DNA of 61,655 nucleotides, counting the filler, from Asterionella formosa (taxonomy: Eukaryota), in NCBI GenBank assembly GCA_002256025.1. It is 15 parts of 15 records of this genome, joined end to end, with 100 filler letters (N's around TTAATTAATTAA, not from the genome) between each part and the next. Parts side by side here need not be neighbours in the genome. Positions count along the whole stretch, not along the records: positions 41,221 to 45,233 come from NKIB01013771.1; 14 more parts are not named here. One strand, 5' to 3'. The notes below the pieces were generated by a model. It ran no database searches. It worked only from the letters and a program-made list of their open reading frames with translations, and was not told where the DNA came from. Shown here one piece after another: positions 4,034-57,653 of this stretch (within the stretch, counting starts at the first letter, position 1; every line of letters starts with the position of its first letter). The translations under genes and the position numbers were made by a program.

Positions 4034-4133
4034 NNNNNNNNNNNNNNNNNNNNNNNNNNNNNNNNNNNNNNNNNNNNTTAATTAATTAANNNNNNNNNNN
4101 NNNNNNNNNNNNNNNNNNNNNNNNNNNNNNNNN
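4034..4133. other. Artificial assembly linker N44-TTAATTAATTAA-N44 (first of 14)
   Basis: The same 100-bp spacer with stops in all six frames lies at 4034-4133, 8162-8261, 12277-12376, 16402-16501, 20526-20625, 24648-24747, 28769-28868, 32886-32985, 37004-37103, 41121-41220, 45234-45333, 49344-49443, 53450-53549 and 57554-57653. Intervening contigs are 4002-4033 bp, in roughly descending size. Confidence 0.98.
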
Positions 4134-8161: not shown

Positions 8162-10110
8162 NNNNNNNNNNNNNNNNNNNNNNNNNNNNNNNNNNNNNNN
8201 NNNNNTTAATTAATTAANNNNNNNNNNNNNNNNNNNNNNNNNNNNNNNNNNNNNNNNNNNNGAAACGACAGCGCGCAGCAGCGAAATGAAAGAAATCAAT
8301 ATTTCATTGTTGAGATCTTTGCTCATCTTCTTGACCGCGATTCTCACCTCGCTCTGCATTGGTTCGAAGTTAATGGACTTGCGAACTAAACTCCTCATAT
8401 TACTAAGTGCAAAATTATTATTCCACAGCCAGTCTAAAATGAGTCAATTCAAATGGATTTAGTCACATCAGGCAGCAGCATCAAATAGGATTGGCTGCTT
8501 ACCGGTCGTGGTTTCTTATTTCAAACATATATTCTTACATCCTCCTCAATAATACTTTTGAACATTGCTCCTCAATAGTGTGTTGCCACTGCCACGCACA
8601 TTTATAGTAATTTTCAGGGGCGGGACTTGATTAATTGATGCTAAACTTTTCCAAATTCGTTCCTTCGCCCTTCGGCTCTATTCATCTACCAGTTGCTGGT
8701 AGCTAGCTACATATGATGATATGAATATTTTTTTTGTAGCAACGCACATCATAATATCATTCATTGGGTAGCTATTGTATAGGTCAGGATGGTAGGCGTA
8801 GCTCTTGGTCCAGAGGCGAGGCACATGTCGGATTTTATGATACAGAGATCATACTCTCCTGCCTGGTAAGCCAGCCAGCCAGCCAGTCTTGTCCATCTTC
8901 CAACATTGGGGAACATGGAGAGTGTGCACGCACAACAAGGGATTGTGGTCGATTTCAAAAAAGCAAGGGCTGGCTTTCTCAGATTCGCTCTCACTCAACA
9001 TGCTCAAAATGCTCAAAATACTTTCGTAGCCAGCCAGCAGTGCGCGCATGAAAGCAATAGCTGGCTGTCTGTATTGATATTGTGAATTTTAGTCACTCTC
9101 AATCTCATCAGAGCGAGTTGAGGAAAACATACAGTACGTTCCCATGTTCCCATGTTCCCATGCTTCTTGTCAAAGCAACTTGAGCCAAAAAAACTGAGTC
9201 CACTTGCCATCTTTGCTTGGTGGCCTGGACTGGTTACATTTGTACCATCAACTCTGTTTACCTTATTCCCAGTCCAATGTGACGTTATTTTCTGCCAAGT
9301 TTGAGCTGCTTTACCACGAGAGAGCTGATGACAAGACAAAAAGAATGACAATGTGCGTACCAAGCGAATGAACTGCAGATTGCAGTGCACAAGTGGCCAA
9401 CATCTACCCATTGTTTGCTCGTCTCAGTCTGGAATGAAAGGAACAAGGTAGGTGGTACCTAGTTTACCATACCACGCCCGTGCTACCTATACAATGATAT
9501 ATTATTCATACCGGTAGTAGTACTATATGCATATCATACTCTCATGTGCACTTTGGTATCAATTTGGCTGCATACGCTGGCTTCCTTCGACCTGTTAGTA
9601 TCTGACTCGATATGGACAGTCAGAATACAACATTCTGCAACATTCTGGGTAAGATATGTGGAGACTCCGGCCTCAGCGAAAAATGAAAGGAATACTAGCT
9701 ATACTTAGCTATACCCGCCTTCTGGCCAAGAAGTTCGCCAATGACCATGCATATTATCATGACGGACGATAAGATTTGCCAAGCAGGTTAGATTCAGCAA
9801 ATTTCTCATCAGCAACTCCACCTCGAGAAGCTGCGGCACCCCCACACCACCCACAGGACCAGCAGATCAATTTAAGTCAAAGTCAACAAAACATTTTTCA
9901 TTTTCCATTGGAGGGCGGAATTTCTCGTACTCGCTCTTCTTGAGGCTAAATTACTTACCGGTACTACGACTGGTACTCATTTACTGGGACCTTGTCCCTT
10001 ACTACATAAGAACAAAGCAAGCAAACTTTCGGTGTACTAGTACATTATTGACGAAATTCTACCAAAGTAGTATTTTTCTGTTGGGCTCCGGTAGTGTTCT
10101 ACTCTGGACA

Positions 10111-24748: not shown

Positions 24749-26266
24749 CATCCAGCTGTCGTAGCTTACGATTCGTTCATCGAGTCAGCTGTGGTTCCAT
24801 TTTGCAATTCATGTTGCGAACTGGAAGGCATGCAGAATACTGGAGACCTTTTCAGGAACGCATGGGTAGGAATTCGGACTATTGTTATCTTGGCATCGCG
24901 TAGTAGGATGCCTGCTGGTACGTTGCACACGGAGCTTCAACCTCAATTGAAGCCAGTTCAGAATGCCTTGGAAGAGATGCGTAAGCTTCGTTTAGATCGA
25001 AAGTTTGACTGCCATACCAAGGCTATCGTAGAGCTTTGCGGGGCGCTCAGTTGGGTGCTCATCAAGCCACCTCCTCAACTCCCAGCTGTCTTTTGCAAGG
25101 AAATGGTATCTAGTTGCGAGTTTTGGTCCAATAAAATTAGAAAGGAATACAAGGGAAAGGATGAAAAGCACGTTGTATTCTGTGATGCTCTCAAAACGGT
25201 GGGAAAGGAGATTGTAGCTTACATCACTGAATACCACAAGACTGGTTTGGCTTGGAATCCCCATGGAGTGTCCCTTGCCGAGGCTATCATTACTCTGGAG
25301 TCAGAACCCGAGCCTCAACAAAATGATCCAGGTTCACCAAGGAGACGCAAGCAGAGTTTTGTAACTGGAGGGGCTGGAGGAATGAACACTTTGATGGCGG
25401 AGCTGCAGAAGAAGCAAAACTCCGATGGATCGTCAGCTGCAACTGGACTGAAGCGAGTAAGTATTCAGACAAGCAATAATTATGTCAACCAATGCGTTCA
25501 TCATTTTATTAATTACTGACATTTTCAAAACTAGGTAACAAAAGACCAGCAGACGTGGAGAAAGGAGTTCAAAGGTGAAAAATTGGCTGTTGTACCTGCT
25601 GCAATTGTCGAGAAGCCTGTCGATATCCACAACAAACATCACAAGAAGCTTTCTGGCTTACCACTTTTAGAATACCAAGACCGCGGCCATAAGTGGGTTA
25701 TTGAGCATCAGACGAAAGAGTCAGCGGCACTTGTTTGCGAGAACGGGATGTTGGTTGTTGAAATTACAGATCCAAAACAGCAAGTCTATATCTTTAGCTG
25801 TGACCATATCACTATCCAAATCCAGGGCGAAAAAGTCAAATCTATTATCATGGACAGTTGCTCAAATGTCAACCTAGTATTTGGAAGCTGCTTGGCAGCA
25901 TGCGAAACCGTCAATTGTAAAAAGATTCAAATCCAGACAACGGGCCTCTGCCCCAGCTTCAGCATTGACAAGACAGCAGGTTGCTTGATTTATCTCAGTC
26001 AGGACACGATTGATACGACCTCCTTTGTAACATCTCAGTCGAGTGAAATGAATGGTGAGTTATGCATAGCCATTTCTTTTTTTGGCTGTTTGATTTGAAT
26101 GCAAGTCACAGCATTTCTCATCCATTTCTCGTTTGGTTTTTCTTCCGTCCACCCAGTGAGCTTTCCCAATGGCGACGAGCACAAGGAAGTTCCTATTCCA
26201 GAGCAGTTCGTGCATAAAATATTGAAGGGAAACCTAACGAGTGAGGTATCTGATCTTTATCATTAG
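24749..26266 (+). CDS. CAP: Adenylyl cyclase-associated protein (CAP/Srv2), 5'-partial; exons <24749-25456, 25535-26054, 26157-26266
   Basis: Motifs EFWSNKIRKEYK, EYHKTGLAWNP, WH2-like GLKR|VTKDQQTWRKE across the splice, and CAP_C with SSEMN|VSFP...EVPIPEQF. GT-AG introns of 78 nt (CTGAC branch) and 102 nt restore the frame. Confidence 0.93.
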
Positions 26267-26794: not shown

Positions 26795-28156
26795 TCACGT
26801 TGCAAAAATGTTGTCCGAGGAACCGAGATTAATGACATTCAACGAATTCAGAAGAGCGATTTCGCTCGGGAGCGGCCCAGAAAAGTGATTATTCTGGAGA
26901 GAAATTACAGACAAGGATGTCATTTGACCAATCGAAGTAGGAAGCGTACCAGTCAGGCTGTTGTTTCCTACACCGAAGATTCCAACGTTTGATAGCTGTC
27001 CTATCTCCGACGGCAAAGGACCTATCAGAGAATTATTGCTCACACTGAAGTAGGTTAGGCTGCCTAGGTTCCCAAGATTCGTTGAAAGGCTACCGGTGAG
27101 AATGTTACTCGCCAAGTTTAGCTTTTGCAAGCTGCGCAAGTTGTATAATTCTTCCGGAATGGTACCAAGAATTTTGTTTCCTTGTAGCTCCAGGACCTCC
27201 AGACCAGAAAGTAGACCCAACTCTGGTGGAATCGACCCTGCGACATTGTTATCCTGTGAATCGATAGCGATTACCATCCCATCGCTATTGCAACTAACGG
27301 CTGCCTTGTTTGCCCAGAGACATTCATCCCTTTCGATAAGCCAGCCTGACTTATTCCACCATTGTTCACCAATGAGACCGTAATAGAGGGTGGCCATGGC
27401 GTACCTTTGAACTTTTCGCTGATCGCTGTAAATAAAAAACAGATCATCTGATGCCAACCATTGCAAAGCAGAATATTGTATTGCTGACGAGTCTCGGAGA
27501 GATGCACCGCCATCTCTTGCCAGAGGAGTCAACAATTTCAAGAGTTCCTGAGCATTAGGGGATGTGCCAGGAAACGTTGGTGCCAATGTTAATGGTCTCG
27601 GCGATGGTTGCATAGTTGGTTGCGTGGATGAGCTAGGTAGGACGACCGTTCCTTCTGATGCGTTGGCGTTGTTCCCGCCATTATGATTGCCACTGGTCAA
27701 AATAAAAATGAAAACCACAACAATAACAAAAATGAAAACAAGGACGAGGGCAGCACCAAAGTAGTACATCCTTCGATTTAAGTTCGTCCCGTTCGCCTTA
27801 ACCACACCAGGTCCCTTAATGGTTGCTCTTGAGGTAGTGGAAACATACGATTCCGCTGGCATTTCATCCGATTCTTTCTTCTCTTTCTTTCCTCCTGCTG
27901 AATCCTTCGTGACCGATTGGCGAGACTGGTAGCGTTGCGAGCTTACTAGCGCGGACCCGCACCTTCCCAAGTCGTCTTCCTCGTCCATCGAAACATAGCT
28001 GTCCTTAGTAAGAACACCATCATCGTCCGAAAAATGAGTAGATTTCCTCTGGTCAAACGAAAGCGAAAGTGTGAGATTTATGTCTTGTCCTTTATCTGCT
28101 AGTACATTTGATGAAACACGGGGCGGCGAATGTAGTATTCCATTCGGATTCGACAT
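26795..28156 (-). CDS. Single-pass membrane leucine-rich-repeat protein (diatom-type LRR family); C-terminal Cys cap out of frame
   Basis: Likely start MSNPNG. TM segment YFGAALVLVFIFVIVVVFIFIL; Pro/Thr stalk; QYSALQWL / QRYAMATLYY / ECLW N-cap; plant-type LRRs (LxxLxLxxNxLxGxIPxE). Confidence 0.88.
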   Translation of the reverse strand: MSNPNGILHSPPRVSSNVLADKGQDINLTLSLSFDQRKSTHFSDDDGVLTKDSYVSMDEEDDLGRCGSALVSSQRYQSRQSVTKDSAGGKKEKKESDEMPAESYVSTTSRATIKGPGVVKANGTNLNRRMYYFGAALVLVFIFVIVVVFIFILTSGNHNGGNNANASEGTVVLPSSSTQPTMQPSPRPLTLAPTFPGTSPNAQELLKLLTPLARDGGASLRDSSAIQYSALQWLASDDLFFIYSDQRKVQRYAMATLYYGLIGEQWWNKSGWLIERDECLWANKAAVSCNSDGMVIAIDSQDNNVAGSIPPELGLLSGLEVLELQGNKILGTIPEELYNLRSLQKLNLASNILTGSLSTNLGNLGSLTYFSVSNNSLIGPLPSEIGQLSNVGIFGVGNNSLTGTLPTSIGQMTSLSVISLQNNHFSGPLPSEIALLNSLNVINLGSSDNIFAT

Positions 28157-29347
28157 GTTTGCTCCTCTTGCAATAAATGCAGACGATTCTCGATATATGT
28201 TTCTCTTTCCGCTGGAATTCACTTCTCTGAATTTGCTGAAACAAAAATAAGCTTCGATGTAGGCTTTATTGTATGAAAGCAAATATGAGTATCAGTGCAG
28301 TGACAAAGAACGGGGTGGGCGTAGCAATTGAGTTTCGTCCTCAATGAGCACACCAGGGCACGAAATGGTGCGAAAGCGAATTTTCGGGGAACTTCATCAC
28401 CGAGATACATACCGGCATGATGTTATCGTACAAGGTCACCGACCTACATACGAGTACCTGTACACACTTTGTCTGGAAACAAAATTCGAAACACGAACAA
28501 GTAATTTTTCAAGGCGACAAAAATGCTAACAAGAGTAAGTCATTCTCGAAATTATCCAGCAATTCCCGCTCCAGCTATCGTCTTGCCATTCGGGTACTTT
28601 TTAAGTAATTTTTAGGCTCTAAGTAATTTGTTAAGTAATTTCTATTTAGGGGCAATATGGGGCACATCGAATTTTTCGGCATAAAAATTGCCGATTTTTA
28701 GCATGACCCAGCCGGAACGACGGAAATATACAAACATGGAGCAACCAAAGAAACGGTATTTTATGCAANNNNNNNNNNNNNNNNNNNNNNNNNNNNNNNN
28801 NNNNNNNNNNNNTTAATTAATTAANNNNNNNNNNNNNNNNNNNNNNNNNNNNNNNNNNNNNNNNNNNNTCCCATTGTATCAATATATCTGGTAAGTAAGC
28901 AGTAGATGTTTTGTTGCAGGTAATGGCGCATCGCCAATTCGTTTGTACCAAGACACCATTGGTTTTGTTTGCGGCATTCAATTCTGTCTGGGTTGCTGAA
29001 ACTGCTGTCAGTTGTATTTCATCATGAAGAAGTGTGGTCGGAGTATATATATTTACGGCACTACTGGTAAATTGCGGGGAAAACTAACTAATTCCAAAAT
29101 AGGAATCATAATATTTCATTTATAAAAGTAGTCTAATAGAAATATTTTACTTTTTTTATAATGGGTTTGTCATCCTACGTCACAGTAGATGGGTGGTTGA
29201 CAGCATTTAGGATTTCCCAAAAAACGATAGCATCGTTTTTTTCGTCAGTTGACCAAAACCAAAACCAATCCAAAAAAAGTTTTTGGGTTTTGGTTTGGGT
29301 CAACAGTTAGCAATGGCCTTATAGCCATCAATGCTATATTCTTGACA

Positions 29348-32300
29348 TCCTCCTCGTTACCATGTTCAAGAAGTTCTAAAAATGTACCGCTCAGTACAGG
29401 TCCAGATAACCTTGTAAAAATCTGCTCTTTGACATTCTTCATCAAAATGTCTGCTGGATTGTTTTCTGATCTTAGAAAAACAATATTCAACTCACCCTCA
29501 TCTATCATGTTCTTGACATGATGAAACTTGATATCAATATGTTCTGTTCTTTTTCCGAGCTGTTGATTCTTCACTGTGAATATTGCACTTGTATTTTCCT
29601 CACGTCAAATGCTTGGTAGGATATTTTTACCACCTGTCACTTTGTTCAGTAACATTGCAATAAATTTGATCTCTTGAGCACATTGCAACATCGCAACGTA
29701 TTCTGCTTCTCTGCTTGACAGTGCAACGGATGGCGGCCCTTTGATTGCCAACTGATCAACGCACCACCAATGGTAACCAGAAAACCCGTAGTACTTTTCC
29801 GGCTTACCTTATTAGTGGCCCAGTCACTATCAACATAAGCAATAACCCGTAATTCCTTAGGTTTTCGAATCTTGAAAACTCTGTCCAATTTGCTTGATAA
29901 GAATCCAATAACTCGTGAAACTCCATCCCAGTTTTCTTCGCCTGGACAGCTTAAATATGAAGATAATTCACGTACTGCATTGGCACAGTCCGGGGAATCT
30001 TTCTTAGTAGACCATAATAATTTCCCAACAATCTTGCGATATTCCGCCTCCATACTAATAGTTTCTCCATTATTGGCTCCTAATGTTTTTCCTGGTGCTC
30101 CTGGTGTCACATAAGACTTTATCTTCTTACCAGTACGCATCTCATATTCCAGTAGCATTTCAGTACGAAATTTCTTCAGCTGTACTTCCCAGTATTCTCC
30201 AAATTTGTCATGCTTGCGCATATATTCCAACCCTAAGTGTTTTCGTAGGGAACCTTGTTCCGTGATATTAAAATCTTCCTTGATCATATTTTTCATATAG
30301 TCGACTGCATTCCTGGTACCACATATAATTCCATCATCCACATAGTTTGCCAATAGCCCTTCAATTTGTCCATCATTCTTACGGTAGATAAACAACATTG
30401 GGTCTATTTCGATTTTTTTATACCTGTCTTGCTGGTGACGCATTTCGCAAATTGTCTTGGACCAGCATCTTGGAGCTTGCACAATTCCATACATAGTCTT
30501 AATTAGTTTGCAGATGTGTGTATTCTGATCATTCCCTGTCAATCCTTCTGGGGGCTCAAGAATATAAATGTCTTTGTCGACGTCAGCATTTAAAAATGCT
30601 GCTTCAACGTCGATTGCTTCCGCTATTGAGCCATAGTACATAGTAACAGCCAGAACAGTTTTTATTGTAGCATCACTTGCAACAGGAGCAAATGTCTCAG
30701 TAAAATCAACTCCCGGGATCTGTTCATATCCCTTCATGACCAACCGTGCCTTGTATACTGTCTTGCCAGTTATCACGTCCTCCTTAATACAGAAGACCCA
30801 CCTTGTCTTAAGAGCTCGCTTGTTCACCTCATTTCTCTTAAGAATTTTCCACACTCCTCTTACTTAGAAGTTTTCGAATTATTTCTTTATAGCTTTCATC
30901 CACTCTTTGCGGTCCGGTCTTGCCATCGCCTCATCATCACTATTTGGTAAACCTGGATCCGATGCAAGACTTGCATTGAATACGGAATTTACTTCAGTTT
31001 CCTTATTCGAAGAAGTTTCCTCCTCAATCACATTTGGTAGTGAGGTGTCTGGAGTGAATTTAACACTTTTAGTTGGATTATACGATGAGCGAGTCCAACT
31101 TCTTCATTTCTCATCCCAACTTTGCCTGTTTAGATAGGAGCGTAGTTGGGTTTTTAGTCTTTGCTCATTGCTTCAAAACATTTCTCTCTCCTAGGTGAGA
31201 CATTTCATAACTCCTTGAGGTAGATTTTCCTTTTTCAGTGTCTGCGGTTGATTTATCCTTGTCGTCGTCATCTTCCTCATTGTCTGAAACTTCTGGTAGT
31301 AAATCTTCATTGTAGAAATCATCATCTAATCCGTCATTATTGACTTCAGTTTCTGGTTGAACTGCAACTTTCTCTTTGGCATTGTCCTTGTAGATTTTTC
31401 CTAGTCCGTCTGTAGGTGCATTTGTTCCATGCCACTCACTGCACTTAACATTGCGTGTATTGATGACAGTGTTAGTCTCATGATTATACATACAATACGT
31501 ATCTTGGGAGTGGTCCTCCGAATAACCCAAAAAGACACATTTGAAAGAACGTGCGTCTAATTTCTTAATACCATGTCTTGCAGTAACCCAGCCTATGCGC
31601 CCAAATTGCTTGTATAACTTGTAGGGCCTTCTTGGATTCATCTCGCCGTAGAACATGTCGTCGGGACTTCTTTTAGTTACTGAGTTAACTTGACTATATG
31701 TTAAATTGTCATGATGCCGCTCAACTTCCATCCAAATAATTTCGCCGTAATCGTGCAAACATTTCTCGCCCACATGACCAAGCATTGCATGCGCTTCATT
31801 AATATCGACAATCACATAATTATTTTCAAACTCACCATTTTGATTATTCCATTTGTTCTTTCCCTTATTCGTTTTCTTTGCTTCAACTTTCGTCCAATCG
31901 TTTCGTTGTAGTCGTCGATCGATTGTTGTGTAGTGTTCTCTTGTAGTTGCTCGATTTCCATCACCGTTTGCTTGATGATCGGATTACCTTCGACATGATA
32001 CATTGCTCCGAGTTTTCGAGTTTTATCTCTTTTGCAGGTTAGAAAGCCGCTGTTGTTTCGTATAGTCATTATCGTCCTCGAAGATCACTTGATTACCCTT
32101 GTCGATCATTCTAGAGACACTGATGATGTTCTGCTTGAATTCCGGTGCATAAAGCATATCGGTGAGTTTCAAGCGTTTTCCTTCGTCCGTAGTCGTCAGG
32201 GTCATGGTACCAGAGACAGTTGATACTATCTCAGTTCCATTCCCTACCACGACCGTTTCACTCACTTGTTTCTTGTCTTCCATCATGCGCACGTCCGTGC

Positions 32301-32885
32301 AGATGTGAATGGTAGCACCGCTGTCTAACAACCAGCGATTTCTGACGTCACGAGCGAGGTTTACTTCCTCGTTGTAACTAATTGCGACGCATGTGGCGAC
32401 GAACATTCCTTGCTGGGTAGATGTAGTCGTGTTGTTCTCTTCGTTTTTATTATATTTAGATGCACTGTTACTAGTGCACTCACTTGCGTAGTGTCCCATG
32501 CGTTGGCACTTGAAACACTTAATCGTTTTCCACCTTTCTTTCTGCTCAGGAATGAGCTCCTTCTTGTCGGCGCTATTGCCCTTGCTGCGACAGTCAGCCG
32601 CCTTGTGGCCATACTTGCCACACTTACAACAGTCACCTTTGAACTTCCCCTTCGTGTAGAAGGCCTGTTCACTCTTGTTCTTGTTAGTCGTTTTGACGTC
32701 ATCCCGGACATATAGATCGTAGTAGTCCTGGATGTCTGTCTTAATCTCTTCGACCGTTAGCGTGTTGCGCGCCAGGCCGAACCTTCCTACTACCAAACTC
32801 TTGTAGCTTTCAGGTAGGTTGTTGATCATGTGTGCCACATAGGCACCATCCAAAACGGCGGAGCTTGTATTGCCCAATCGTTCCC
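29348..32885 (-). mobile_element. Third Ty1/copia family, degenerate gag-pol with integrase core deleted
   Basis: Two zinc knuckles (CCKCGKYGHKAADC, CFKCQRMGHYASEC); protease WLLDSGAT; HAMLGH pre-integrase; RT (YKARLV, IDVEAAFLN, YVDD); RNase H (YVDSDWA, NPADILMK). The purine tract GAGGAGGA is followed by TGTCAAG at 29347, a probable 3' LTR start. Confidence 0.93.
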
Positions 32886-39916: not shown

Positions 39917-42514
39917 AATCTAAGATCATCAAACTTTAAGGAAGACAACGACAGCAGTTATCAAGTAGTACAATGTCTTCAAGAAACCATAAAGAGGTTC
40001 ATGGAAAAAAGCGACATGTGGCAAATTGCTACTGCCGGTATGGAACAAAGAAGCAAGTTCCAAAATGAGTTTACAAAGAAAAAGCGAATAGGCGATTATC
40101 CAAAGCAACCCAATCAGCGATTAGGAGACGTTGGGGGTAATACCCCATTGTCGATGGGTACACCATCAGCTACTAGTACAAAGAATCCCGTAATTGATAC
40201 TGACAGCGATGATGACATTACTACTTAAATGGTTGATACAAGAAAAATGGCTCCTGTCGATGATGCCATTAATAACTCCCGGATGTTGATGGACTACATG
40301 GTACCATATCATAAATTTTCTATTTGCACGGACCAACATGTTCATGAAAAACTAAGTGAAAAACATTTTGCACTTGCCAAAGAATATTATCAATCGGTCA
40401 ATGAACTCAATCACTACAAAGGTCATATTTTGGTTCAAAACTCACTTGTCTATACGAGGTTATCAAGACTCTTCAATTTCAGCAGCCTTATCAGAACATC
40501 GTTCTTGCCTAGCTAAACTTGAACCATCAATTGTCACAAAGGTTGTGAGTTGATTTTATTTTCAAGACCAAGAAGTTTTGCTGTGAACCTGTAAGTTTGA
40601 TGTTATAGTTTGTGAATTGCAGGTACTGTAAAACAGAATATCAATCAAATGTGTTTTTTTCTGTTCCCAAAAGAGAATCAAACATCCCGCCCTGCCTATC
40701 TGGTCCAAGTAGTATGAAAGGCATTTCCAATCACAAACAGAAATGGTTTGCCAAATGTTGCCTAACTCGGCTATACACAGTGAAACCGGAGTTAGGCAAA
40801 GAAGTGGAGAGTGACTCAGAGCTTGCCGATTTCATATGGAATGGTTCTGATGCAATACTTTCAATGAATCAGACAGACCATTGAACATACCAACAAGGCA
40901 CGTTTAGATTACATGAAATCAACATTTGGTGGCATGTTCATTAAAAAGTTGAGAGAATGTCAGAATGTATTGAATAATCAATTTAAAGGAATCTTAGGTA
41001 AGTTCTTGCAGGGAGATGCTCCGAAAGCATGATGTTTTGAGTCAGGGATTATATTCTTATCAAATATGTTTGCCAACATAATTCATGACACACCAGCTGG
41101 TTTAACAGAATATAACTTCCNNNNNNNNNNNNNNNNNNNNNNNNNNNNNNNNNNNNNNNNNNNNTTAATTAATTAANNNNNNNNNNNNNNNNNNNNNNNN
41201 NNNNNNNNNNNNNNNNNNNNAGATGCTCCACAAGATTGCAAACATGAACCTTTCCGTTGCAGACGATGACACAAAGGTTTTCAGGCCTGTCAATCGATGA
41301 AAATTGGTTGATAATTATGACATACAAAGCGGTTTTGTGACTGCTCATCATCGCATGGCGGCTGCTCTGAATCCTAGAAGGACAGAGGAGGACATGATAT
41401 CCTTTCATCATGATGCATGCAAAATGGTACTATTTTGAATCTCTGGCCCAAATTAAACCTGAAACCGGGTTCAACATTGTATTGACACACTGCACAGCTG
41501 AATTTTCTTCAATTGAATCTGCCGTGGGGCTTGCCAAACTATAGGAGCATGAAAAAAATGATGGACAAGGAATGCTGAACAGCATTGTTCCAACATTTGT
41601 AGTACTGCCATGGGGGCTCATCCTGATGTGCAATGTGCAGAGATTCCTGACATTGCACAAGCATCTGTTCCCAATCAGATCGCTATGAAAGAGGGCTATT
41701 CTTGAATGCATCTTTTGATTGAGTTTTACCATGCAGCTTTCCGGCAACATGGACTTCAGATGCTCCATCATTTTCTACCACTGCAAACTTTGCTAACAAA
41801 GATAATGCTTTGTGAATATTGAATTTTACTGTTACCTTCAGAGGTAAAGGAATCAATTTCCGGAGGGTTAATGAAGTGTCTGGAGATGTCAGCTGCTCTC
41901 TCTGGTGGAATCTAGGCATATGAAGTTTTTCATTGGATAGGTTCAATCAATTGACCACTGGTGGAGGGTGAGACAAGCCTGTACTTGTTGATATAATGTC
42001 TGCCGGAAAATTGCTGGGCATTGCATCAGCTGCAACACCAAACAGTACAAAAAATCATTGCTGCATCCATTGTCATTGACAATTCCTGCAAAGAAATCCA
42101 GGATTGCTTCTCTTCTCATGCATACTTGCTATTACAAAATCTTTCTTAGAGCAGTTGATTTGTTAATTTTCTCTCCCGAAATTACAAGGAGCAGAAAAAC
42201 TATTTTTCGAGAGAAAAAGCACATCATCAAAGTTAGCATCAAATCATAAAGAAATCAAAAATAATGTAGATGACTGTAGAATGACTTGGCATGCAATGAC
42301 TGTTAACAATAATGCAAATTTGAAGCTGAAGGATTTTTGAGTATTGAGACTACCAAAATGATTTAGTGAATGACTTTAAGCGAAAATGCTATTTAAAAGA
42401 AGAAATGGCACAGTATGCATTTTTCAAAGCTCCTGAGTGGGATTCGGATTTCTTTCTATATTCTATTGGGTGTATAATAAAATATATCTTCTTTTTAATT
42501 CATCTTAATTATAT

Positions 42515-45046
42515 TTATCCAATTCGACGTCTTTTACTTTTGACAAGACAATTAGAACATATTGTTCCTTGCTCACCTGCAACTTGATAGCCTGATATAT
42601 GTTTTTTGTAAGAGATGATACATTGATGCAATTGAATGATGATGTCACCACACACATCACACATACCGGTTGTCATCAATGTAGAATTGTATGCATCACC
42701 AACTTTCGCAACTTTGGCTACTTCAATTGCTTCAGTAATGGTTCCAACTGTGGTTTGTGGAATATGATCCTTGTATGCAGGTTTAGCTGTCAATTCAAAT
42801 TCAACTGTAGGTTTGATGACACTTTTTGCCTTCACTGCAGGCATCTCAGTAGCTGATGGTGAAGATGTCAAACCTTGATTAGAAATTTGCAATGCTAGAT
42901 AGTCGAAATTTTTTGTCAGATGCTGCTCAATATTTGTTATGGTAATCATTTTCGAATTCAAACCGGTTAAGGAATCATCTACAACTTGCAGAATGATTGT
43001 TGATGTTTTGTTTGTCTTCAAAATGAGGGCTTCAATGCGCTTAACAACTAGCTTGATTCTTGAAAATCTTTTGCTTTCTGCTTGAGTGAAATTGAAACGC
43101 CATTGGTTTTTGAATTTCGCTTCTAGCTGAAAAATGCCGCCCTGGAAACACCCTAGATTATTATTGTGATCAAAGAAGTGTGTACCAAACCATTCATGCC
43201 AAATCGACAGGCAGCTCAAATGATTCTTATAGAGTTCATACCTTGGACATCCATTTTCATTTTTCTTCATGTGAATGGCACTAACAGATGTTGAAACCCT
43301 TTGATCATTCAAAGATCTATTACTTTGTATTGATGATGAGGGCTGTGCAGATGATGAAAAATCGAAGGATGACAAATGATTCAAAAGAGACTGTAAGTGT
43401 TGTGGTCGAACTAAGCCATCAACTCTATCGTTCAACTGTGAAAAGTTTGCTCTCATTTCAGAATGCAAATTTGTAAATCGATCTCTGACACCAGGTAAAA
43501 TATAGTCAATTCTAAGATCCACTGGATCCTGAACCAAATTCAGATGATGACTCATATTCTTTAAAAATTCTTTGAACTCTTCACAGTTAAACACATCCAA
43601 TGTGAACAAAAAATGACCCCGACCATTCAATATCATTGTTGCTGCATCTTGCAGAATGATGACACGGAGGCAAGAGAGCAAATTAAGAAAAGCATAGACG
43701 GCAGAATTGGTAGCTGCATCAATAGATTCAATTTCTTTTTCAATAAATGGAAAGATAGTTTGTTGCAGGGTGATTGAAGGTTTGATGTGATCTCGTGGCA
43801 AAAAAACACTTCCTTTTTCATCTGGATGGCCAGCCATAACACGCATGGCTTTCATTGGCAGTTTAGCTTAACAAACATCACGTCGAGTATCCACATTCCA
43901 ATTTCCAAGGTCATTGATGTTATAGCCATCAAGTTCATCCAGCTCTGCTTTGACTGAACCAGCCGATCGACCAAAATGCACGAAATGTTTTGAAATAATG
44001 CCAAGGTGTCTGCAAGCATTCTTCATGTTACTCGCATATGCCTGATCAGTTACTGAAAAAGTGTTGTCGAAGCCCCGAGAATCTGTCAACAGCTTAATAT
44101 TGAACCAGGCTTTGTTTGAAGTAAAATCAAATGATTCTGCTTCTCCACTCTGCATAAATCTTGCCATTAAATAAAATCCAAGAGCACCAATAGCACACTC
44201 ATTGACATTACGATGTCGAATACAACGTCCATAAAGAGTCTTTAAACCATTTGTTTTCCCAGTAGCAATGCGCATCACATGAATTAAAATATCCTCTAGA
44301 ATTAAAATATCCTCTAGACTATTTTTATCCTTGTGTAACAAGGAACAAAGATCACTAAGTTCGCACTTAAAGAGTGATTCGCCTCTTAAGATCCCATTTG
44401 TTGTCATCAAAAGACAATATCGATCACATAAAGATGCCACTGAATAAATGGATGATAACGAATTTTTTTGAAAGAAAAAATCTTCAAGTCTTGGTATATC
44501 TTGAGCAGCAGTGTATGGCGTGAATTCACTTGTCAATTTTTCATCGAAATTGCTTTTCGCAGTTTGTGTCTTTCTCGTTTCTACTGTCTTCAGCAATCTT
44601 TTGACATGGCCAGACATTAGTACTTCCTTGGGTATGTTGTTGCATCCTCCATCCCGTTGTTGTGCATGCAAATCTAGGATGGCTGATCGATATTGATTGA
44701 GTACACTATATCCAATTGGCTTGTCTGAAATCCAATCAGTGTTGGAAATTACAGATTCATGATCATCCTTTGAAAATTGTTCTTCCACAGGTGTACATTG
44801 ACCTGGTCGTCCTCTGGGTCGCTGATGACGTCTTGATTGATACCATAAAAAGCCAAAGAACTTTTCTTCTGTCACTGTTGTAGATGGGATGCCATCCACC
44901 TCGGACGGAAAGGCATAACGGGAAAAATCAAGGAATTCTGCCATTTTTCTTCTATAGGCAAGAATGGTGTTTTCCGGACGACCAGCCTTATCGTCTGCTG
45001 CAACCTGTTTTGCTTGAGCTGCGAATTTTCCACTTGTGTATGACAT
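42515..45046 (-). mobile_element. Crypton-type (CryptonF-like) tyrosine recombinase transposon gene, NDC10-like YR + GCR1_C, inactivated by one in-frame stop
   Basis: ORFs 43868-45046 and 42515-43855 are in the same frame, separated only by TAA (RRDVC*AKLPMKAM). Motifs: RPENTILAY, ILRGES (R), GKTN (K), RHRNVNECAIGALGFYL, HFGR (HxxR), LGNW. GCR1_C-like IWHEWFG...LEAKFKNQWR...KRFSRIK. Confidence 0.85.
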
Positions 45047-45333
45047 GCTTAAATTGGAATAAATGATGTTGGTAATTTGGGAGGAGGTTGTATAGATTAT
45101 GTGGTAACGAATTCAATTCAAATGAAGAAGGGATGAGACAGGCAAAGAAGAACGAGAGTTTGGTTTTGGTTGTAACAAGATGATGATAACAGCGAAATTA
45201 CAAACATTCATGATCACTGCCTGTGTAAACGGTNNNNNNNNNNNNNNNNNNNNNNNNNNNNNNNNNNNNNNNNNNNNTTAATTAATTAANNNNNNNNNNN
45301 NNNNNNNNNNNNNNNNNNNNNNNNNNNNNNNNN

Positions 45334-46603: not shown

Positions 46604-47749
46604 TCATTCATCACTGGTGGGAGGAGTGTAAAATGGAAAATCAGTGTATCCTTTCTCCCCAGTTGGATACCACCAGTGCTCGTAAGCCGCTTCGGGTTCA
46701 ACTGGCCAGTTGTTGGCAAATCGCTCGACCAAATCGGGGTTGGAAATGTACAGGCGTCCAAAAGCAGCAAGATCAGCTGCCCCAGAACGAATCACACCTT
46801 CAGCACTTTCCTTGTTGAGACCAATATTTGTAATAATGGGTCCACTCCAGACCTTGCGAATGTCTGCGACAGTAACCACCTTGCACAAAGAATGGAAGCC
46901 AAAGCCAAGGCCATCCATGACGTGAACGTACGCGAGACCATACTTGTCCAATTCTTCGCAGACGTAAGGGAACATGGTGTCATTGTCGGCAGATCCCATA
47001 CTTCCATAGTTCCCATTAGGACTGATGCGAAACCCAATGCGATTTGCAGGGAAAGCACCATCTTCAATGAGAGCCTCTACAGTCTCCTTGAGGAAACGAA
47101 GGCGGTTTTCGGGACTGCCGCCATACTGGTCCTCACGTTGGTTGCTCGAGCTCTGAAGGAACTGGTCAAACAAGTATCCATTGGCACTATGAAGCTCGAC
47201 GCCATCAAAGTCTGCTTCCTTGGCAAGGCGGGCTGCCTTGACAAAGTCTTGAGTGGTTTCCTGCACCTCCTCAGCGGTCAAGGCGCGAGGAACTTCGTAG
47301 TCCACATACTCGCCGGTGACGGCGTGGGTTTGACCCACAGCTGCGATAGCAGATGCAGAAACAGTGTCGTTTGTGGAAGGGTGGTGGCTGCTGTGCGCAG
47401 CACGTCCCATATGCCACAACTGTAGATAAATGACTCCACCCTTGGCGTGAACAGCGCTGGTTACCTTCTTCCAGCCTTCCACTTGGTCGGCGGTGCGAAT
47501 GTGAGGGGCGTTGCGCCAACCAGCGCCCAATTCTGAGACGGCAGTAGCCTCCGTGACGAGGAGTCCACCCGAGGCACGCTGAGCGTAATGCTCAGCCATG
47601 AGATCGTTGGGGATTGCGTTGATCGGATCGAAGGGCTCTTCCGTCGGCGTGCAGCGACCTCTGGTCATTGGAGCAAGGACGACCCGATTCTTGAGCTCTT
47701 GTCCTCCAATAGTGAAAGGAGAGAGAAGCTGCATCTGAGGAGCTGCCAT
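46604..47749 (-). CDS. Old Yellow Enzyme family NADH:flavin oxidoreductase (OPR/NemA-like ene-reductase), 381 aa, intronless
   Basis: Motifs NRVVLAPMTRGR, YAQRASGGLLVTEAT, LQLWHMGR, DGVELHSANGYL, FGRLYISNPDL, GYTDFP. True start is likely MAAPQ at 47749. Confidence 0.95.
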   Translation of the reverse strand: MAAPQMQLLSPFTIGGQELKNRVVLAPMTRGRCTPTEEPFDPINAIPNDLMAEHYAQRASGGLLVTEATAVSELGAGWRNAPHIRTADQVEGWKKVTSAVHAKGGVIYLQLWHMGRAAHSSHHPSTNDTVSASAIAAVGQTHAVTGEYVDYEVPRALTAEEVQETTQDFVKAARLAKEADFDGVELHSANGYLFDQFLQSSSNQREDQYGGSPENRLRFLKETVEALIEDGAFPANRIGFRISPNGNYGSMGSADNDTMFPYVCEELDKYGLAYVHVMDGLGFGFHSLCKVVTVADIRKVWSGPIITNIGLNKESAEGVIRSGAADLAAFGRLYISNPDLVERFANNWPVEPEAAYEHWWYPTGEKGYTDFPFYTPPTSDE

Positions 47750-48469
47750 GGTGATTAGTTGTTGCTTGTAGGTGGTCCAAGACGTTGCTGTTGCAGCCTG
47801 TTTCGATTTTATGATCAACCAAAGACCGGTATGTAGTTTTGCTGAATCCAAATCTTGGTATTCTCCGGAGGCCGGAGTACTTTGTATCTTTTTACATGGA
47901 CTGGCGGTACCTGGTACCTGGCACAAGCATGTAGAGTACCTGGTACCTGGGTATCATACGGGTAAAGATACCGGTATGAATTTTGATTAGGTACCTACTG
48001 GTACCAGGTATGCCACTACATACCATCGCTCTTTTGCCGTGTCAGCAACTTTTGGTCTGTGTTCGAAAATGTTCTTCGAATCTCCAAGAAGGGCGAATGA
48101 ACAACAATTTCTAGTACACATAGGTGGTCAGTACTGTCCGGTACCTCTCCCTTGCTTGACTGTGTTGAAAATATGGTATAGAGAAAGGCAAAAATTCTAC
48201 CCAGTGGTACTGGGGGTAGAAATTTTTTTCACATTTTGGTACATAGAATATTCTACCAACGGACCGATGGAACCCTGCAGTATGCCATGGTATCGTCCAA
48301 GAAATTCTACCACGATACAACAAGGTATGAAATGGGATTGAATTTAAAAATTAAACTAAATATCAACATGGTGACAATGCCAACAAGAAGAGTAAAAGAA
48401 CCTACACAATCCCCTGTTTACAAGAGTGTCTTTATTGCTATGATTGTCTGTAATTAAAAAATATCATGA

Positions 48470-52952: not shown

Positions 52953-53716
52953 ATGTTCATTTTGACAATAAAATGACTAACGGCTTAACGTCTATGTACG
53001 CAACTATTTGAAGATTAACGGAGTGGCACAAAACTTAGGGGTTCGACAATTTTGGGGGTGTACCCCTGCCTTATCTCATATGTGAATCAATGAAAAGAAA
53101 ACAAGCAACCTTCATGCTATGTACGCTGATAACCAGACATTCCAGATCATTCATCATGCTGTGAAAAAGTTCATTGAAACAAGTTCAACCCTTTGGTGTC
53201 ATCTGGTACCAAGTCGAGGTGCTTTGACAAAGTATGAGTGGTACCAGGTGCACTACGAACCTTGACACACATTAGTCTCATCATGGAGGGAATGCCCCTT
53301 GTACCAACTTTTCGCAACATGAAGCTGGTGTTGTGAGTAACATTTATTGTTGCTAAGATGCATAGCAAATCGACCGAAACCTCCATATCCAAACGAAATA
53401 CACCGTGCCTCCATGCCAAGGTATAAGTCTGCGAAGACAGGATAAAAGTNNNNNNNNNNNNNNNNNNNNNNNNNNNNNNNNNNNNNNNNNNNNTTAATTA
53501 ATTAANNNNNNNNNNNNNNNNNNNNNNNNNNNNNNNNNNNNNNNNNNNNTTTACATAAGGTTGTTCTAGTACCGGTACTTCGTCCACTCGCTTCCAAGGC
53601 CGGGGACATAAAACTTGGATAAAAATCAAAGTGCCTCGCTATTTGTATACTGTATATACTTTTTTGTCGTTGTTCAAATCATTGCCAAATCAATACAATC
53701 AACTGGCTATTCTATC

Positions 53717-54799
53717 ATGCCAGCTCTAATACTCCTAACTGCACCGCTAGAAGATGCCCTTTTGCCTCGAATGGATGTATCAGAAGTCGCAGATCGAATC
53801 GGGGGGATGAGACAGCAAGAGGAGACTGCTTATTTATGTCACGATTACCTGGCCATAACAGCCGACGTTCGATCAACTGCTCGAAAGCCTGTTGACGAAG
53901 ACTGCCGAGTCAAGATGACAGAATGGTCATACCAAGTAGTTGATTTCTGCAAGTTTCGACGAGAGACAGTGGCCATTGGCATGTCCTTTTTGGATAGATT
54001 CCTCTCCACGCCTGCAGGAATTCACGCCTTGTTGGATCGCAAGTCGTACCAACTAGCTGCCATGACAACACTCTACATGGCAATCAAGTTGCACGAACCA
54101 ATTGAAATGGAGACATCCCTACTTGCTGATTTGTCGCGGGGTTGCTACAATGAAGTTGAGATTGCTGAGATGGAGGGCGATATACTGGAAGCTCTGCGAT
54201 GGCGAGTGATGGGCCCTACCCCACTGGCCTTCGTGCAGCACTTTCTCGCTCTGTTGCCGAGCAATATTCATGCTTCAGTGGCAAATGCCGTGATGGACTA
54301 TGCTCGCTTTCAGACGGAATTGGCGGTTTCAGATTATTCATTTGTCGTTTGCCCATATAGTCACATTGCGATGGCATCTGTTTTGAACGCTGTCGAAGGT
54401 ATAGACCGAAATCTATTTCCTCTGAAGCAACAAGGCAAGTTCCTGCGCACACTAGAAAATTTCTCTGGGATCATGGTGGAGCAAGTGGCTGAAACCCAAA
54501 CTTATTTAAACAACATCCTCGTTGATGTCTTTGCTGTTGACGAGTCACCTCAATCCTCTGTACATGCAAAGACCAGTCCAGATTCGGTTGCCCGGACTGG
54601 GATATTTCGAAGCCCATCAAAGAATCAATTTTCACAGCAACCGGGACATGCGGCTTCGCAAGTTACTGCTCAAGGACAATCTCGACAAAGAAAAACAAGC
54701 TTTAGTAACAACATTCGAGCAAAGGTTAACACGAGCCCTGTCGGTGTCGTCGCCGAGATCGGCCAGACGACAAGGTCCCGGCAACCATACATTTACTAA
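53717..54799 (+). CDS. Cyclin (diatom-specific cyclin type)
   Basis: Motifs MRQQEETAYLCHDYL, CRVKMTEWSYQVVDFCKFRRETVAIGMSFLDRFL (cyclin box), YQLAAMTTLYMAIKL, ME..IL.AL.W...GPTP. Start is ATG 53717 or the next Met. Confidence 0.92.
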   Translation: MPALILLTAPLEDALLPRMDVSEVADRIGGMRQQEETAYLCHDYLAITADVRSTARKPVDEDCRVKMTEWSYQVVDFCKFRRETVAIGMSFLDRFLSTPAGIHALLDRKSYQLAAMTTLYMAIKLHEPIEMETSLLADLSRGCYNEVEIAEMEGDILEALRWRVMGPTPLAFVQHFLALLPSNIHASVANAVMDYARFQTELAVSDYSFVVCPYSHIAMASVLNAVEGIDRNLFPLKQQGKFLRTLENFSGIMVEQVAETQTYLNNILVDVFAVDESPQSSVHAKTSPDSVARTGIFRSPSKNQFSQQPGHAASQVTAQGQSRQRKTSFSNNIRAKVNTSPVGVVAEIGQTTRSRQPYIY

Positions 54800-55050: not shown

Positions 55051-56753
55051 TTAACGACAACTTCGGCCTCGTCCCAGCTGACCACGACTATGTCCGTCAA
55101 AGCCCCGTTGCTGCTGTCCTCCTCGCTGCTGCTGATCATATCTCCGATCAAATCCACTTCCCCCGTCATCTTGGCTTGGAGTATACATGCGGGCTCCCCT
55201 GGGCGGACCGACTATTGCGGCGTAGCCATCACTCCTCTCACCTCGGTAATTGCGGGGCGGAGGTTGGCTCTTGGGCCGAGATCGGTTTTGATTTATGTCT
55301 CGTTGATGATCCCTGCCTCTGGAACTAATTTGATCGTTCAAATCTTCGGTTCTGTCAATGCAAAGCATATTGTAAGACCCAAGCAATCTAAACACGTTCG
55401 TAGCAAATCACTGTACACTTACACTGACGTAGATTCAGCACGATCAATCTCCTGCCGAACAAGGTCTTCGTCTCTGGTAAATTCTTCGAACCTTGGGCGA
55501 TCACAGTCGTAACCATGATGCCCGTTCCTACCACAATTGAAGCACGTTATGCCATCTAATCCAAAAAACCATTTCATTTCCTGACACATGAAATGGCCTT
55601 TTTGTTGACATACCATGCATATCGCATCTTCACTCGAAGCATAATTCAAATCCCTCCTACATTGCACTCGATGATGTCCACTATCAAAACAAATACCACA
55701 AACCATGCGCTTTACAGGAAAGCGCTCTTTGCAATCTCGATTGATGTGACCTGGTGCCCCACATTTGAAGCAAGTCCGACCTAGGTGACAGTCTCGAATC
55801 TCATGTCCCACCTTCCCACACAGCACACACGGTGTTGCCTTGGCTTCATTGGTGCATTTCGCCGCCAAGTGACCTACTTGGCCGCAACGATAGCACTTTG
55901 TGGAAATGTCAATTTCCCAATATCGTGCCCCGCCATTACCGACGGATTTGCGAGTTTTTTTGGGAAGCTCATCCGCTAAAGTGACGCGAATTGGGCGGCC
56001 TTGGAATGTGGTAAATTTCTGGATGCATGCGTCAGCTGATATGGTAGATTCAAACGTGATATAGGCACGCCCCATGTTACGAGGGTTTGCTGTCGCGAGC
56101 GAGTCCTTGTCCATGAGTAGATTCACATCCACTACGGCACCAAAGGCAGCGCAAGCCCTTTGGAGGGCATCTTGAGTAGTTGTGTAAGCGAGGTTAACAA
56201 TTTTTATTTTGCAGCCTTGCTTCGAATCCATCTGCGTACCAGATTCAAGACGGTCGTCGTCGTCACTTTCGCTATCGTCACTGTTGTTCTCGACATCTAA
56301 ATTGGTGGTGTCAATGTCTATTGTACGTCCCAATGCTTTGTCGAACTCCCTTTCGCGCTGACCAAAAGCCTGCAAAAACTCGTCGTTTAGGGGTATTACT
56401 TGAGGAGCTTGGACCAAACCACGCGGACGATTTGGATCAAACAATCTCGCAGCCCATTTCGATAATTTGCCCTTGGCTGCTTCTATACGATCCATCTTGT
56501 CGGGCTCGATAACCTCGGCTACCAGTGTGCCATCATGCTGCGCTCTCCTTTTTCGTGTAGGTGTCTTTTGTGGCTGATCATCGTTCATGTAATCACCAAC
56601 ATTATCATCTTCCATGCTGGGAAATGCATCCAACAGTGCTTTCTTTTCAGCGTCATTTAAATCATCCTTTTCCTGCCCTTCTGAAACTTCTGAATGAATC
56701 GACCACCCACGTTTTCGCATGGTTTCTTGGTCTACTGTATTACCCTTACCCAT
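55051..56753 (-). CDS. RRM + multiple CCHC zinc-knuckle RNA-binding protein (AIR1/2-ZCCHC7-like knuckles); exons 56753-55423 and 55351-55051
   Basis: RRM (IKIVNL, GRAYITF) and CX2CX4HX4C knuckles. A 71-nt GTAAGT...CAG intron (55422-55352) joins in frame to an R/G/Q-rich tail. Confidence 0.9.
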
Positions 56754-57653
56754 ATTCTTGACAGCTGATATGGTATTATGATATATTTAGGAATGGATAC
56801 GGAATAGAAAAGGTTTGCATCGGTACACGGCCTAGGATGTAATGTAACAACAACTCGCTACAAACATCTTCTCAAACTTCGATTTTGAAGTCAAAAAATA
56901 AATTAAAATTTATATCCTGTCTGTACCAGGGTACCTGGTAGCTGTTACCTGGTAGTACTGTAGCTAAACCCTGCCAAGCTGCCAAATAAGTGCCGGTAGA
57001 CTACCTGTATTCCGGCACCTACCGTACTGTTGTAGTGCACAACCGGAAAACTGTATTCTACGAGTAGTCCAGTTTGAATAAATATTTGTATGGTCCTCAA
57101 AGCCCGCAGTCTACCGGTATGTAGTAGTAAAAACAACTACCAGGGTATTACATATTTGCCCACATTGTTGTGCAATGGACTTCAATTTCAACATCACTGT
57201 GAAACAACTTAACCATGACAACAACAAGATCGGATGGTACAATTATTAATAAAATGTATACTTGTTAATTAAATTTCTAAGAACATACATTGTGAAGAGT
57301 CTGTACTCCTAGAATGGCAACATGCATTGGACAATTGTTGGATGTAAACAACTCATGGGACAGATACATTCCCCTCCAAGCATATCGAAAGAATACAATT
57401 TTTGCACAAAAGTGTCTGAAAATGAACAAATCATCAGTCAGGGGCGGAATTGAATTCATGACTATTCATGCCATGCAAATTTTCACACAGTCAACTAAAG
57501 GACAAGCAGTGTATTGATAAATGTCTATATGTAACTTTGAAATGACCTAGTATNNNNNNNNNNNNNNNNNNNNNNNNNNNNNNNNNNNNNNNNNNNNTTA
57601 ATTAATTAANNNNNNNNNNNNNNNNNNNNNNNNNNNNNNNNNNNNNNNNNNNN

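Follow-up and report, generated by a model that had tools for sequence, protein, structure and literature searches.

A probable CryptonF-type DNA transposon, present as an inactivated copy, in the diatom Asterionella formosa

A stretch of 61,655 nucleotides (nt) of Asterionella formosa DNA (assembly GCA_002256025.1), referred to below as the window, carries on one of its contigs (NKIB01013771.1) a gene for a tyrosine recombinase (YR) that continues into a GCR1_C domain. This region is very probably an inactivated copy of a CryptonF-type DNA transposon resident in pennate diatoms. Of all classes of DNA transposons in eukaryotes, Cryptons are understood the least. CryptonF, which combines YR and GCR1_C, is placed in fungi and oomycetes in the account of Kojima and Jurka, where the single diatom Crypton, from Phaeodactylum, belongs to CryptonS, a group described as devoid of GCR1_C, with a conserved C-terminal region of its own and mostly TATGG termini (Kojima and Jurka, 2011; PMC3212892). 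Chlamydomonas also has CryptonF, in an active form, with insertion and clean excision documented there in what is presented as the sole direct sighting of Crypton activity (PMC9977147). Diatom genome papers give "Crypton" as a mere category (13 copies in Phaeodactylum; also Fragilariopsis and Cyclotella). In the searched literature, no diatom Crypton with YR and GCR1_C was found described, and Repbase or the supplement of PMC3212892 might list one.

The recombinase gene and the lesions of the window copy

A preliminary description of the region, made from the sequence, had reported a single intronless frame of about 843 codons with the motifs ILRGES, GKTN, HFGR and LGNW and a tail of the type CDVC...HQC...CSNC. 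The 843-codon frame is real and all these motifs are present, but it is not open, codon 393 being a TAA. Its intronless nature was followed in four public runs, two DNA and two RNA libraries (X1, X2, X10 and X16), mapped to the contig as Logan contigs: those of the RNA libraries are colinear with the open reading frame (ORF) and show no spliced joint (for example, an X10 contig of 1841 nt over 43389-45233), which fits an intronless gene. Both Pfam domains on which the same description had proposed a check exceed their curated cut-offs. NDC10_II (PF16787) is matched in two pieces of 29.6 bits (profile 34-203) and 43.1 bits (profile 211-317) for a cut-off of 26.3, and GCR1_C (PF12550) reaches 26.8 bits for a cut-off of 23, over residues 604-690 of the read-through protein. 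The CryptonF-type architecture that had been proposed for a diatom, an NDC10-type YR joined to GCR1_C, is thus upheld by the two domains, by a fold closest to Ndc10, then to Flp and Cre, and by the grouping with diatom proteins detailed below.

The catalytic residues were followed in two alignments, with 13 relatives (A1) and with 47 relatives (A2). Among the 47, the His of the HxxR motif is invariant, and conservation reaches at least 90% for each of the first Arg, the Lys, the second Arg, the Trp and the Tyr. With the A1 profile, yeast Ndc10 is retrieved at E 8.8e-09 (4aco, 6gyp and others) and shows a Phe at the Tyr column; a search of the PDB with a single sequence gave no match, Ndc10 being found by the profile only. 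The best relative, P0002, is an intact protein of 838 amino acids (aa) with 96% identity and both Pfam domains. Its AlphaFold model has a mean pLDDT of 80.7, the only stretches of low confidence being a linker (556-585) and parts of the tail (722-795, 811-838). Searched with Foldseek, this model retrieves Ndc10 first (4aco, E 3e-07), then Flp (1.7e-04) and Cre (2.7e-04), among 19 matches at E<=0.001. The catalytic R-H-R-Y set is kept by the family, including P0002, and is no longer complete in the window copy. Since the catalytic columns are conserved, the family looks enzymatically competent, unlike Ndc10; judging from the alignments and the predicted structure, it looks like a working tyrosine recombinase rather than a domesticated Ndc10.

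The loss in the window copy is precise. When the window copy is aligned with the 13 relatives, its RDVC*AKLP stands opposite their VYSAKLP: codon 392 is TGT (Cys) at the catalytic Tyr column, which holds Tyr in 12 of the relatives and a gap in the other, and the in-frame TAA that follows takes the place of a Ser. The window copy has therefore lost its catalytic tyrosine and is truncated. In addition, Arg207, in a column invariant among the 47 relatives, is changed to Cys. With Tyr392Cys, the stop at 393 and Arg207Cys taken together, the window copy, as judged from its sequence, cannot make an active enzyme. It also bears an exact in-frame tandem duplication of 18 nt, so that LEDILI is read twice (family D8); one unit is missing from the X2 and X10 contigs and from the near-identical metagenome copy L002, and no X1 contig was seen without the duplication. 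Overall, the window copy and L002 differ by 20 amino acids, three of them at conserved sites.

Reads from the four runs place this copy among many others. In X1, the Ser letter at site 43869 makes up 133,053 of a depth of 134,747, the Tyr letter at site 43872 accounts for 133,837 of 134,795, and the Arg207 letter at site 44428 for 94,947 of 100,357; all the depth carries the intact letters at the three sites in X2, X10 and X16. The summed contig depth of X1 is no copy number, and only the shares within a site are used here. Intact letters thus dominate at the three sites, which makes the window copy a minority, dead variant. On the 4-kb stretch lie 7752 contigs from X1 (3723 at >=99% identity, 2797 at 95-99% and 1232 at 90-95%), 10 from X2, 18 from X10 and 38 from X16, and the X1 contigs show a deeply sampled, heterogeneous family. 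Among the listed matches to public runs, 20 of 24 contain the stretch or part of it and 16 contain at least half of the sampled words, in 15 studies. The runs that contain the stretch are labelled freshwater, lake, river, marine and others, labels from which no habitat claim is drawn.

The Cys/His-rich tail belongs to an additional C-terminal extension of about 130 aa; it is present in P0002 and in the metagenome copies L001 and L002, and absent from the other 12 relatives aligned in A1. It has no Pfam match, is modelled at pLDDT <50 and could, at a guess, be a zinc finger. A second gene was sought in 41221-42514 and rejected, this part holding short ORFs only and no Pfam match above cut-off (the best, PBSX_XtrA at 21.9 bits for 29.7, is noise). 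Pfam found no reverse transcriptase (RT) family on the contig ORFs, where a DIRS or Ngaro element would have RT/RNase H beside the recombinase, and the contig showed no terminal inverted repeats (TIRs) and no long terminal repeats.

Table 1. Location of the recombinase gene, its domains and lesions, and other features of the window
Feature	Position	Strand	Remarks
Crypton contig, 4013 nt	41221..45233	-	Bounded by spacers; internal part of an element of ~4.8 kb, both element ends outside
Recombinase frame, 843 codons including one internal TAA	42515..45046	-	ATG 45046-45044; stop 42517-42515
NDC10_II tyrosine-recombinase domain	43571..44413	-	PF16787; divided by the internal stop
GCR1_C DNA-binding domain	42977..43237	-	PF12550; the A1 profile aligns the same part with the C-terminus of yeast Ndc10
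Catalytic Arg I, R221, ILRGES	44384..44386	-	Column kept in >=90% of sequences
Catalytic Lys, K264, GKTN	44255..44257	-	Invariant in A1; >=90% in A2
HxxR motif, H357...R360, HFGR	43967..43978	-	47 sequences: His invariant, Arg >=90%
Trp W383 of LGNW	43898..43900	-	>=90% conserved
Codon 392, TGT at the catalytic Tyr column	43873-43871	-	Cys for Tyr
Codon 393, in-frame TAA	43870-43868	-	Ser in relatives
Arg207 to Cys	44426..44428	-	Column invariant in 47 relatives
Tandem duplication of 18 nt	44281..44316	-	LEDILI twice
Cys/His-rich tail, CxxC...HxC...CxxC, then KRRR basic patch	42518..42664	-	Read from the sequence
Downstream part of the element, 1.3 kb	41221..42514	-	~98% conserved in L001, L002, L004 and L007
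Cyclin, N and C domains	53612-54796	+	Pfam; a 99%-identical protein in public data
Copia-type LTR retrotransposon	29649-32883	-	Fills one contig; three consecutive frames
Old-Yellow-Enzyme-type NADH:flavin oxidoreductase	46604-47953	-	Intronless; on the contig after the Crypton contig in the window

Copies, ends and unit of the element

A scan of metagenome contigs gave seven loci, L001-L007. Six of the copies are near-identical to the window copy (96-98% DNA identity), and the whole window contig aligns inside L001, L002 and L004 at 97.9-98.3%, all three extending past both of its sides. The unit measures about 4.8 kb (4807 nt on L001; 4838 nt on a composite of L002 and L001) and carries one long ORF. 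The window contig begins about 261 nt inside the left end, which lies beyond 45233, and stops about 577 nt before the right end, beyond 41221. The remaining locus, L006:1-1294, shares about 80% DNA identity and has the appearance of a derivative with an internal deletion: 73 nt from upstream of the start codon (94% identity to window 45145-45217) are joined directly to about codon 184, and conservation is higher in this upstream piece than in the ORF.

Both ends of the element are marked by the same 11-nt core, ATAAATAACTA. At the left end it is found at L002:660-670 and, identically, at L003:843-853, these two contigs having a common left flank that is followed by the core and then by the element. 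At the right end the identical core stands at L001:4673-4683 and is followed by unrelated sequence. L004 links the two ends, as its first 106 nt match the right end of L001 (88% identity, L001 4574-4683), a single core occupies positions 107-117 and the left end comes next. Similarity among the three kinds of contigs ends exactly at the core. No convincing coding sequence was found in the flanks of L001 and L003. A further observation concerns the contigs with the common left flank, which diverge 570 nt further out (L002:1-89 vs L003:1-272), maybe at a second polymorphism or at a repeat boundary.

The core is set in a palindromic context. AATAAC and GTTATT occur three times each in L001, always paired as palindromes and confined to the element's final 130 nt; the arrangement AATAAC-N(1-11)-GTTATT is present 3 times for an expectation of 0.01, and none of 200 shuffles reached 3. 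At the L004 junction the site reads AATAAC-TAGAG-GTTATT, and the left end of L002 has AATAAC-TAAAG-GTTATT. In the right sub-terminal region, read directly from the sequence, a ...GACTTGGTATA(A)ATAAC... motif is repeated and further small palindromes are present. A scan with the right-end motif gave no hit in the genome contig collection and none in the viral contig collection.

The permuted, near-unit-length L004, which runs through a head-to-tail junction, raises the question of a small self-maintaining circular episome, similar to the yeast 2-micron plasmid with its Flp, instead of a chromosomal transposon. The resemblance of the fold to Flp, the very high summed depth in X1 and the prevalence of contigs close to one unit in length among the relatives would all suit such an episome. 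However, past the core, L002 and L003 on the left and L001 on the right continue with sequence that bears no relation to the opposite end, which is how integrated copies behave. Copies decayed by stops are still present, and Pfam found no replication gene among the contig ORFs. A circle is in any case expected as a Crypton intermediate. Moreover, most relatives are on contigs of 2-5 kb, as is the case with collapsed repeats, but others come from much longer contigs (47.8 kb, 105 kb and 3.2-6.6 Mb), so that chromosomal residence is seen in the wider family. We thus consider an episome very unlikely.

Decay is also apparent in the other copies. Four of the six metagenome copies carry lesions, each of them different: Q193* in L001 (relative to L002), a Gln for Arg in the HxxR motif of L002 (R354Q), insertions of +3 and +4 in L004, the latter causing a frameshift, and Y178* with a 2-nt deletion in L005, those of L004 and L005 being again relative to L002. 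L003 and L007, both partial, show no lesion, and P0002 is intact. Many variant copies are on record, from metagenomes and from one deep run. Such a variety of lesions among copies that are otherwise nearly the same fits the decay of a transposon better than it fits a host gene.

This bears on the possibility of a domesticated host gene, in which an old Crypton would have lost its mobility and become an Ndc10-like protein of the centromere or a transcription factor of the GCR1 type. For yeast, both Ndc10 and Gcr1 are described as domestications of this sort (PMC3212892), the profile matches Ndc10, and the relatives from Nitzschia are named "centromere DNA-binding like protein" in databases. On the contrary, the Tyr that Ndc10 has lost and the other catalytic columns are kept at >=90% in the 47 relatives, near-identical copies with distinct nonsense and frameshift lesions are found instead of a single copy, and one run alone yields thousands of variant contigs. 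The defined ends with their common core and head-to-tail junction, as well as the contig sizes typical of collapsed repeats, point in the same direction, and a domesticated gene appears highly improbable.

Relatives, host and setting of the contig

A word-indexed protein search returned 61 proteins at E<=0.001 among 5335 candidates. The named diatom matches are four proteins of Nitzschia inconspicua (those annotated as centromere DNA-binding), one of Cylindrotheca closterium and a record tagged jgi/Psemu1, presumably Pseudo-nitzschia multiseries. The named fungal matches (Circinella, Tricholomella) are much weaker, with E-values of 7.5e-39 to 1.2e-07 vs 9.5e-82 for Nitzschia. A HMMER search over 1.84 billion representatives gave 2015 clusters at E<=0.001, 965 at <=1e-10 and 255 at <=1e-30. 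Protein and alignment scans of viral contigs and of genome contigs gave no confirmed relative in either.

The tree was built from 77 rows of proteins of >=520 aa, leaving out P0003 and shorter fragments, by a quick IQ-TREE search with SH-aLRT support only, and is unrooted. It divides into a clade of 54 rows, which contains the window and all six named diatom proteins, and a clade of 23 rows with all seven named fungal proteins, separated by a branch of SH-aLRT support 100. The diatom-side clade is deep and much branched, and is sister to the named fungal proteins with NDC10_II and GCR1_C. Among the 77 rows are no Crypton sequences from Repbase, no oomycete CryptonF and no Chlamydomonas CryptonF; being unrooted and built without oomycete or green-algal references, the tree speaks against contamination or a recent import from fungi, and not against an ancient transfer.

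A fungal or oomycete contaminant, or a very recent horizontal transfer from one of these groups, might be suspected because CryptonF has been described from them (PMC3212892). The contig is only 4 kb long and has no linked host gene, and one ESM Atlas row labelled oomycete scores 0.94. But the named fungal proteins match far less well than those of Nitzschia and stay in their separate, fully supported clade, and the diatom-associated clade is deep and diverse, with its 54 rows and the 255 representative clusters at E<=1e-30. The GC content of the Crypton contig (38.1%) falls within that of the other 14 contigs of the window (35.0-45.2%), one of which clearly belongs to a diatom by its cyclin. 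We regard contamination or such a recent transfer as extremely unlikely. Of the two origins considered in the preliminary description, an under-described diatom lineage receives support from the 54-row clade, whereas a horizontal acquisition finds none as far as a recent fungal event is concerned. Its concern that the contig might group with a contaminant was not borne out by GC content, by the cyclin or by the tree. Its view of the literature was correct for CryptonF in fungi and oomycetes and for a diatom CryptonS (PMC3212892) and too narrow for the host range, given the CryptonF of Chlamydomonas (PMC9977147).

A gene of a giant virus of algae, or one recently delivered by such a virus, would have a hint in its favor in one ESM Atlas cluster, a look-alike of P0002, in which 55% of the members have NDC10_II and which is labelled 56% viruses. 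However, neither the family alignment nor the end motif found a relative in the viral contig collection, and the unit, of about 4.8 kb only, has its own ends and no viral gene. A viral source is hardly conceivable.

The window consists of 15 contigs, each 4002-4033 nt long and placed in an approximately decreasing order of size, which are unrelated to one another and separated by spacers of the form N44-TTAATTAATTAA-N44 (4034-4133, 8162-8261 ... 57554-57653). As these are separate contigs that have been joined, a gene order read across the spacers would be wrong, and the neighbours give the Crypton contig no context. The ends of the Crypton contig do not overlap with each other, and the idea that its 4013 nt form a circle was rejected, as an X10 loose end beyond 45233 is unlike the contig's other end; the contig is internal to a longer unit. 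No other copy or end of the element is found in the other 14 contigs, and an Rfam search of the whole window gave no match.

The other contigs are eukaryotic, with cyclin, CAP_N, LRR and RRM proteins and a Copia-type retroelement. The best named relatives of the cyclin are from pennate diatoms, at 56-63% identity (Epithemia, Phaeodactylum, Seminavis with a "diatom-specific cyclin", Nitzschia and Cylindrotheca). The Copia-type element has RVT_2 (153.9 bits), retroviral SH3-like and Pol_BBD domains and a CCHC zinc knuckle, and the flavin oxidoreductase matches Oxidored_FMN at 266.5 bits. Three further contigs carry the N-terminal domain of an adenylyl cyclase-associated protein (CAP_N), a leucine-rich-repeat (LRR) protein and a protein with RRM and a CCHC knuckle (24749-25516, 26798-28291, 55422-56786).

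Comparison with known recombinases and proposed mechanism

The element resembles CryptonF of fungi and oomycetes, as these are described, in its single protein with YR followed by GCR1_C, in having no RT and no TIRs, in the identical short direct repeats at both ends and in its kinship with Ndc10 and Gcr1 (PMC3212892). It differs by its diatom host and by a deep clade apart from the named fungal proteins, by a terminal core of 11 nt where the same account gives 6 (PMC3212892), by the C-terminal extension of the diatom subfamily, which ends in the Cys/His-rich motif, and by the fact that no C48 peptidase or second gene was found in it. CryptonF-1_cRei of Chlamydomonas reinhardtii, compared here by its published description, similarly has YR and GCR1_C and ends in a short motif matching the target, and the clean excision and integration observed there correspond to the mechanism proposed for the diatom element (PMC9977147). 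Its host is a green alga, its motif is of 5 nt (CACCG / CAYCG), and its activity has been shown whereas that of the diatom element is deduced (PMC9977147). CryptonS of oomycetes and Phaeodactylum tricornutum is likewise a YR DNA transposon with short terminal repeats in a stramenopile host (PMC3212892), but the diatom element has GCR1_C and ATAAATAACTA termini, which does not fit CryptonS.

Among characterized proteins, Ndc10/Cbf2 of Saccharomyces cerevisiae (4aco, 6gyp, 6gys) is the best profile and fold match, and its C-terminal part aligns with the GCR1_C-like part; it is, however, a domesticated kinetochore protein whose catalytic site is reported as not preserved (PMC3212892), whereas the diatom family keeps the full catalytic set. 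Flp of the 2-micron plasmid and Cre of phage P1 have the same catalytic fold and act on sites made of inverted arms around a short spacer, but they are only 10-14% identical in sequence and neither has GCR1_C. The sites of Flp and Cre are longer, with 13-nt arms and 8-nt spacers.

The element would thus be a unit of about 4.8 kb with one intronless gene, predicted to encode a protein of about 838 aa that combines an Ndc10/Flp/Cre-like recombinase, GCR1_C and, in this subfamily only, the Cys/His-rich tail. Following Goodwin's Crypton model, the recombinase would bind the inverted AATAAC/GTTATT arms at the element ends, while GCR1_C perhaps reads the sub-terminal palindromes. The element would be excised as a circle retaining one copy of the 11-nt core, and this circle would re-integrate by site-specific recombination at a target with a similar core, which would then stand at both ends. 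The window copy is a rare variant beside a majority of copies intact at the three sites described above.

Several points weigh against reading the region as such a transposon. Each end is known from one locus, since L002 and L003 have the same left flank and the right flank is in L001 alone. The head-to-tail junction is one low-coverage metagenome contig with just 106 nt of right-end sequence before the core, and it may be a circle, a tandem pair or an assembly artefact. The 11-nt core exceeds the repeats of 4-6 nt described for Cryptons (PMC3212892). The ends of the window copy itself are not on its contig and were placed from near-identical copies. Neither an empty site nor an insertion polymorphism is at hand, transposition being deduced and not observed, and the RNA-library contigs cover the element yet cannot prove transcription. 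Finally, the name CryptonF would follow from the domain architecture and from the sister position to fungal proteins with NDC10_II and GCR1_C.

It is possible, though rather doubtful, that diatoms harbour an ancient and diverse CryptonF lineage of their own that is active to this day. In this subfamily, most of the reads come from intact copies, and there is a junction, circular or tandem, with a single 11-nt core. The 17-nt palindrome AATAAC-TARAG-GTTATT and the recombinase would then form a natural pair of the Cre/lox kind, native to diatoms, that drives rearrangements in populations of widespread freshwater diatoms.

The element is not a new kind of system; it is distinctive by its host group, by the 11-nt core with its compact palindromic site and by the Cys/His tail of its subfamily. 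With regard to the searched literature, what is new here is the extension of the YR and GCR1_C architecture of CryptonF to diatoms, in a deep and diverse diatom-associated clade rather than as a stray transfer, together with concrete element ends: the 11-nt core, the palindromic arms and the head-to-tail junction. The diatom proteins annotated as "centromere DNA-binding like protein" are more likely transposon recombinases. If intact members are active, diatom genomes may undergo inversions and translocations through them, as happens in Chlamydomonas, and the recombinase with its short site could possibly provide diatom engineering with a native tool for site-specific recombination.

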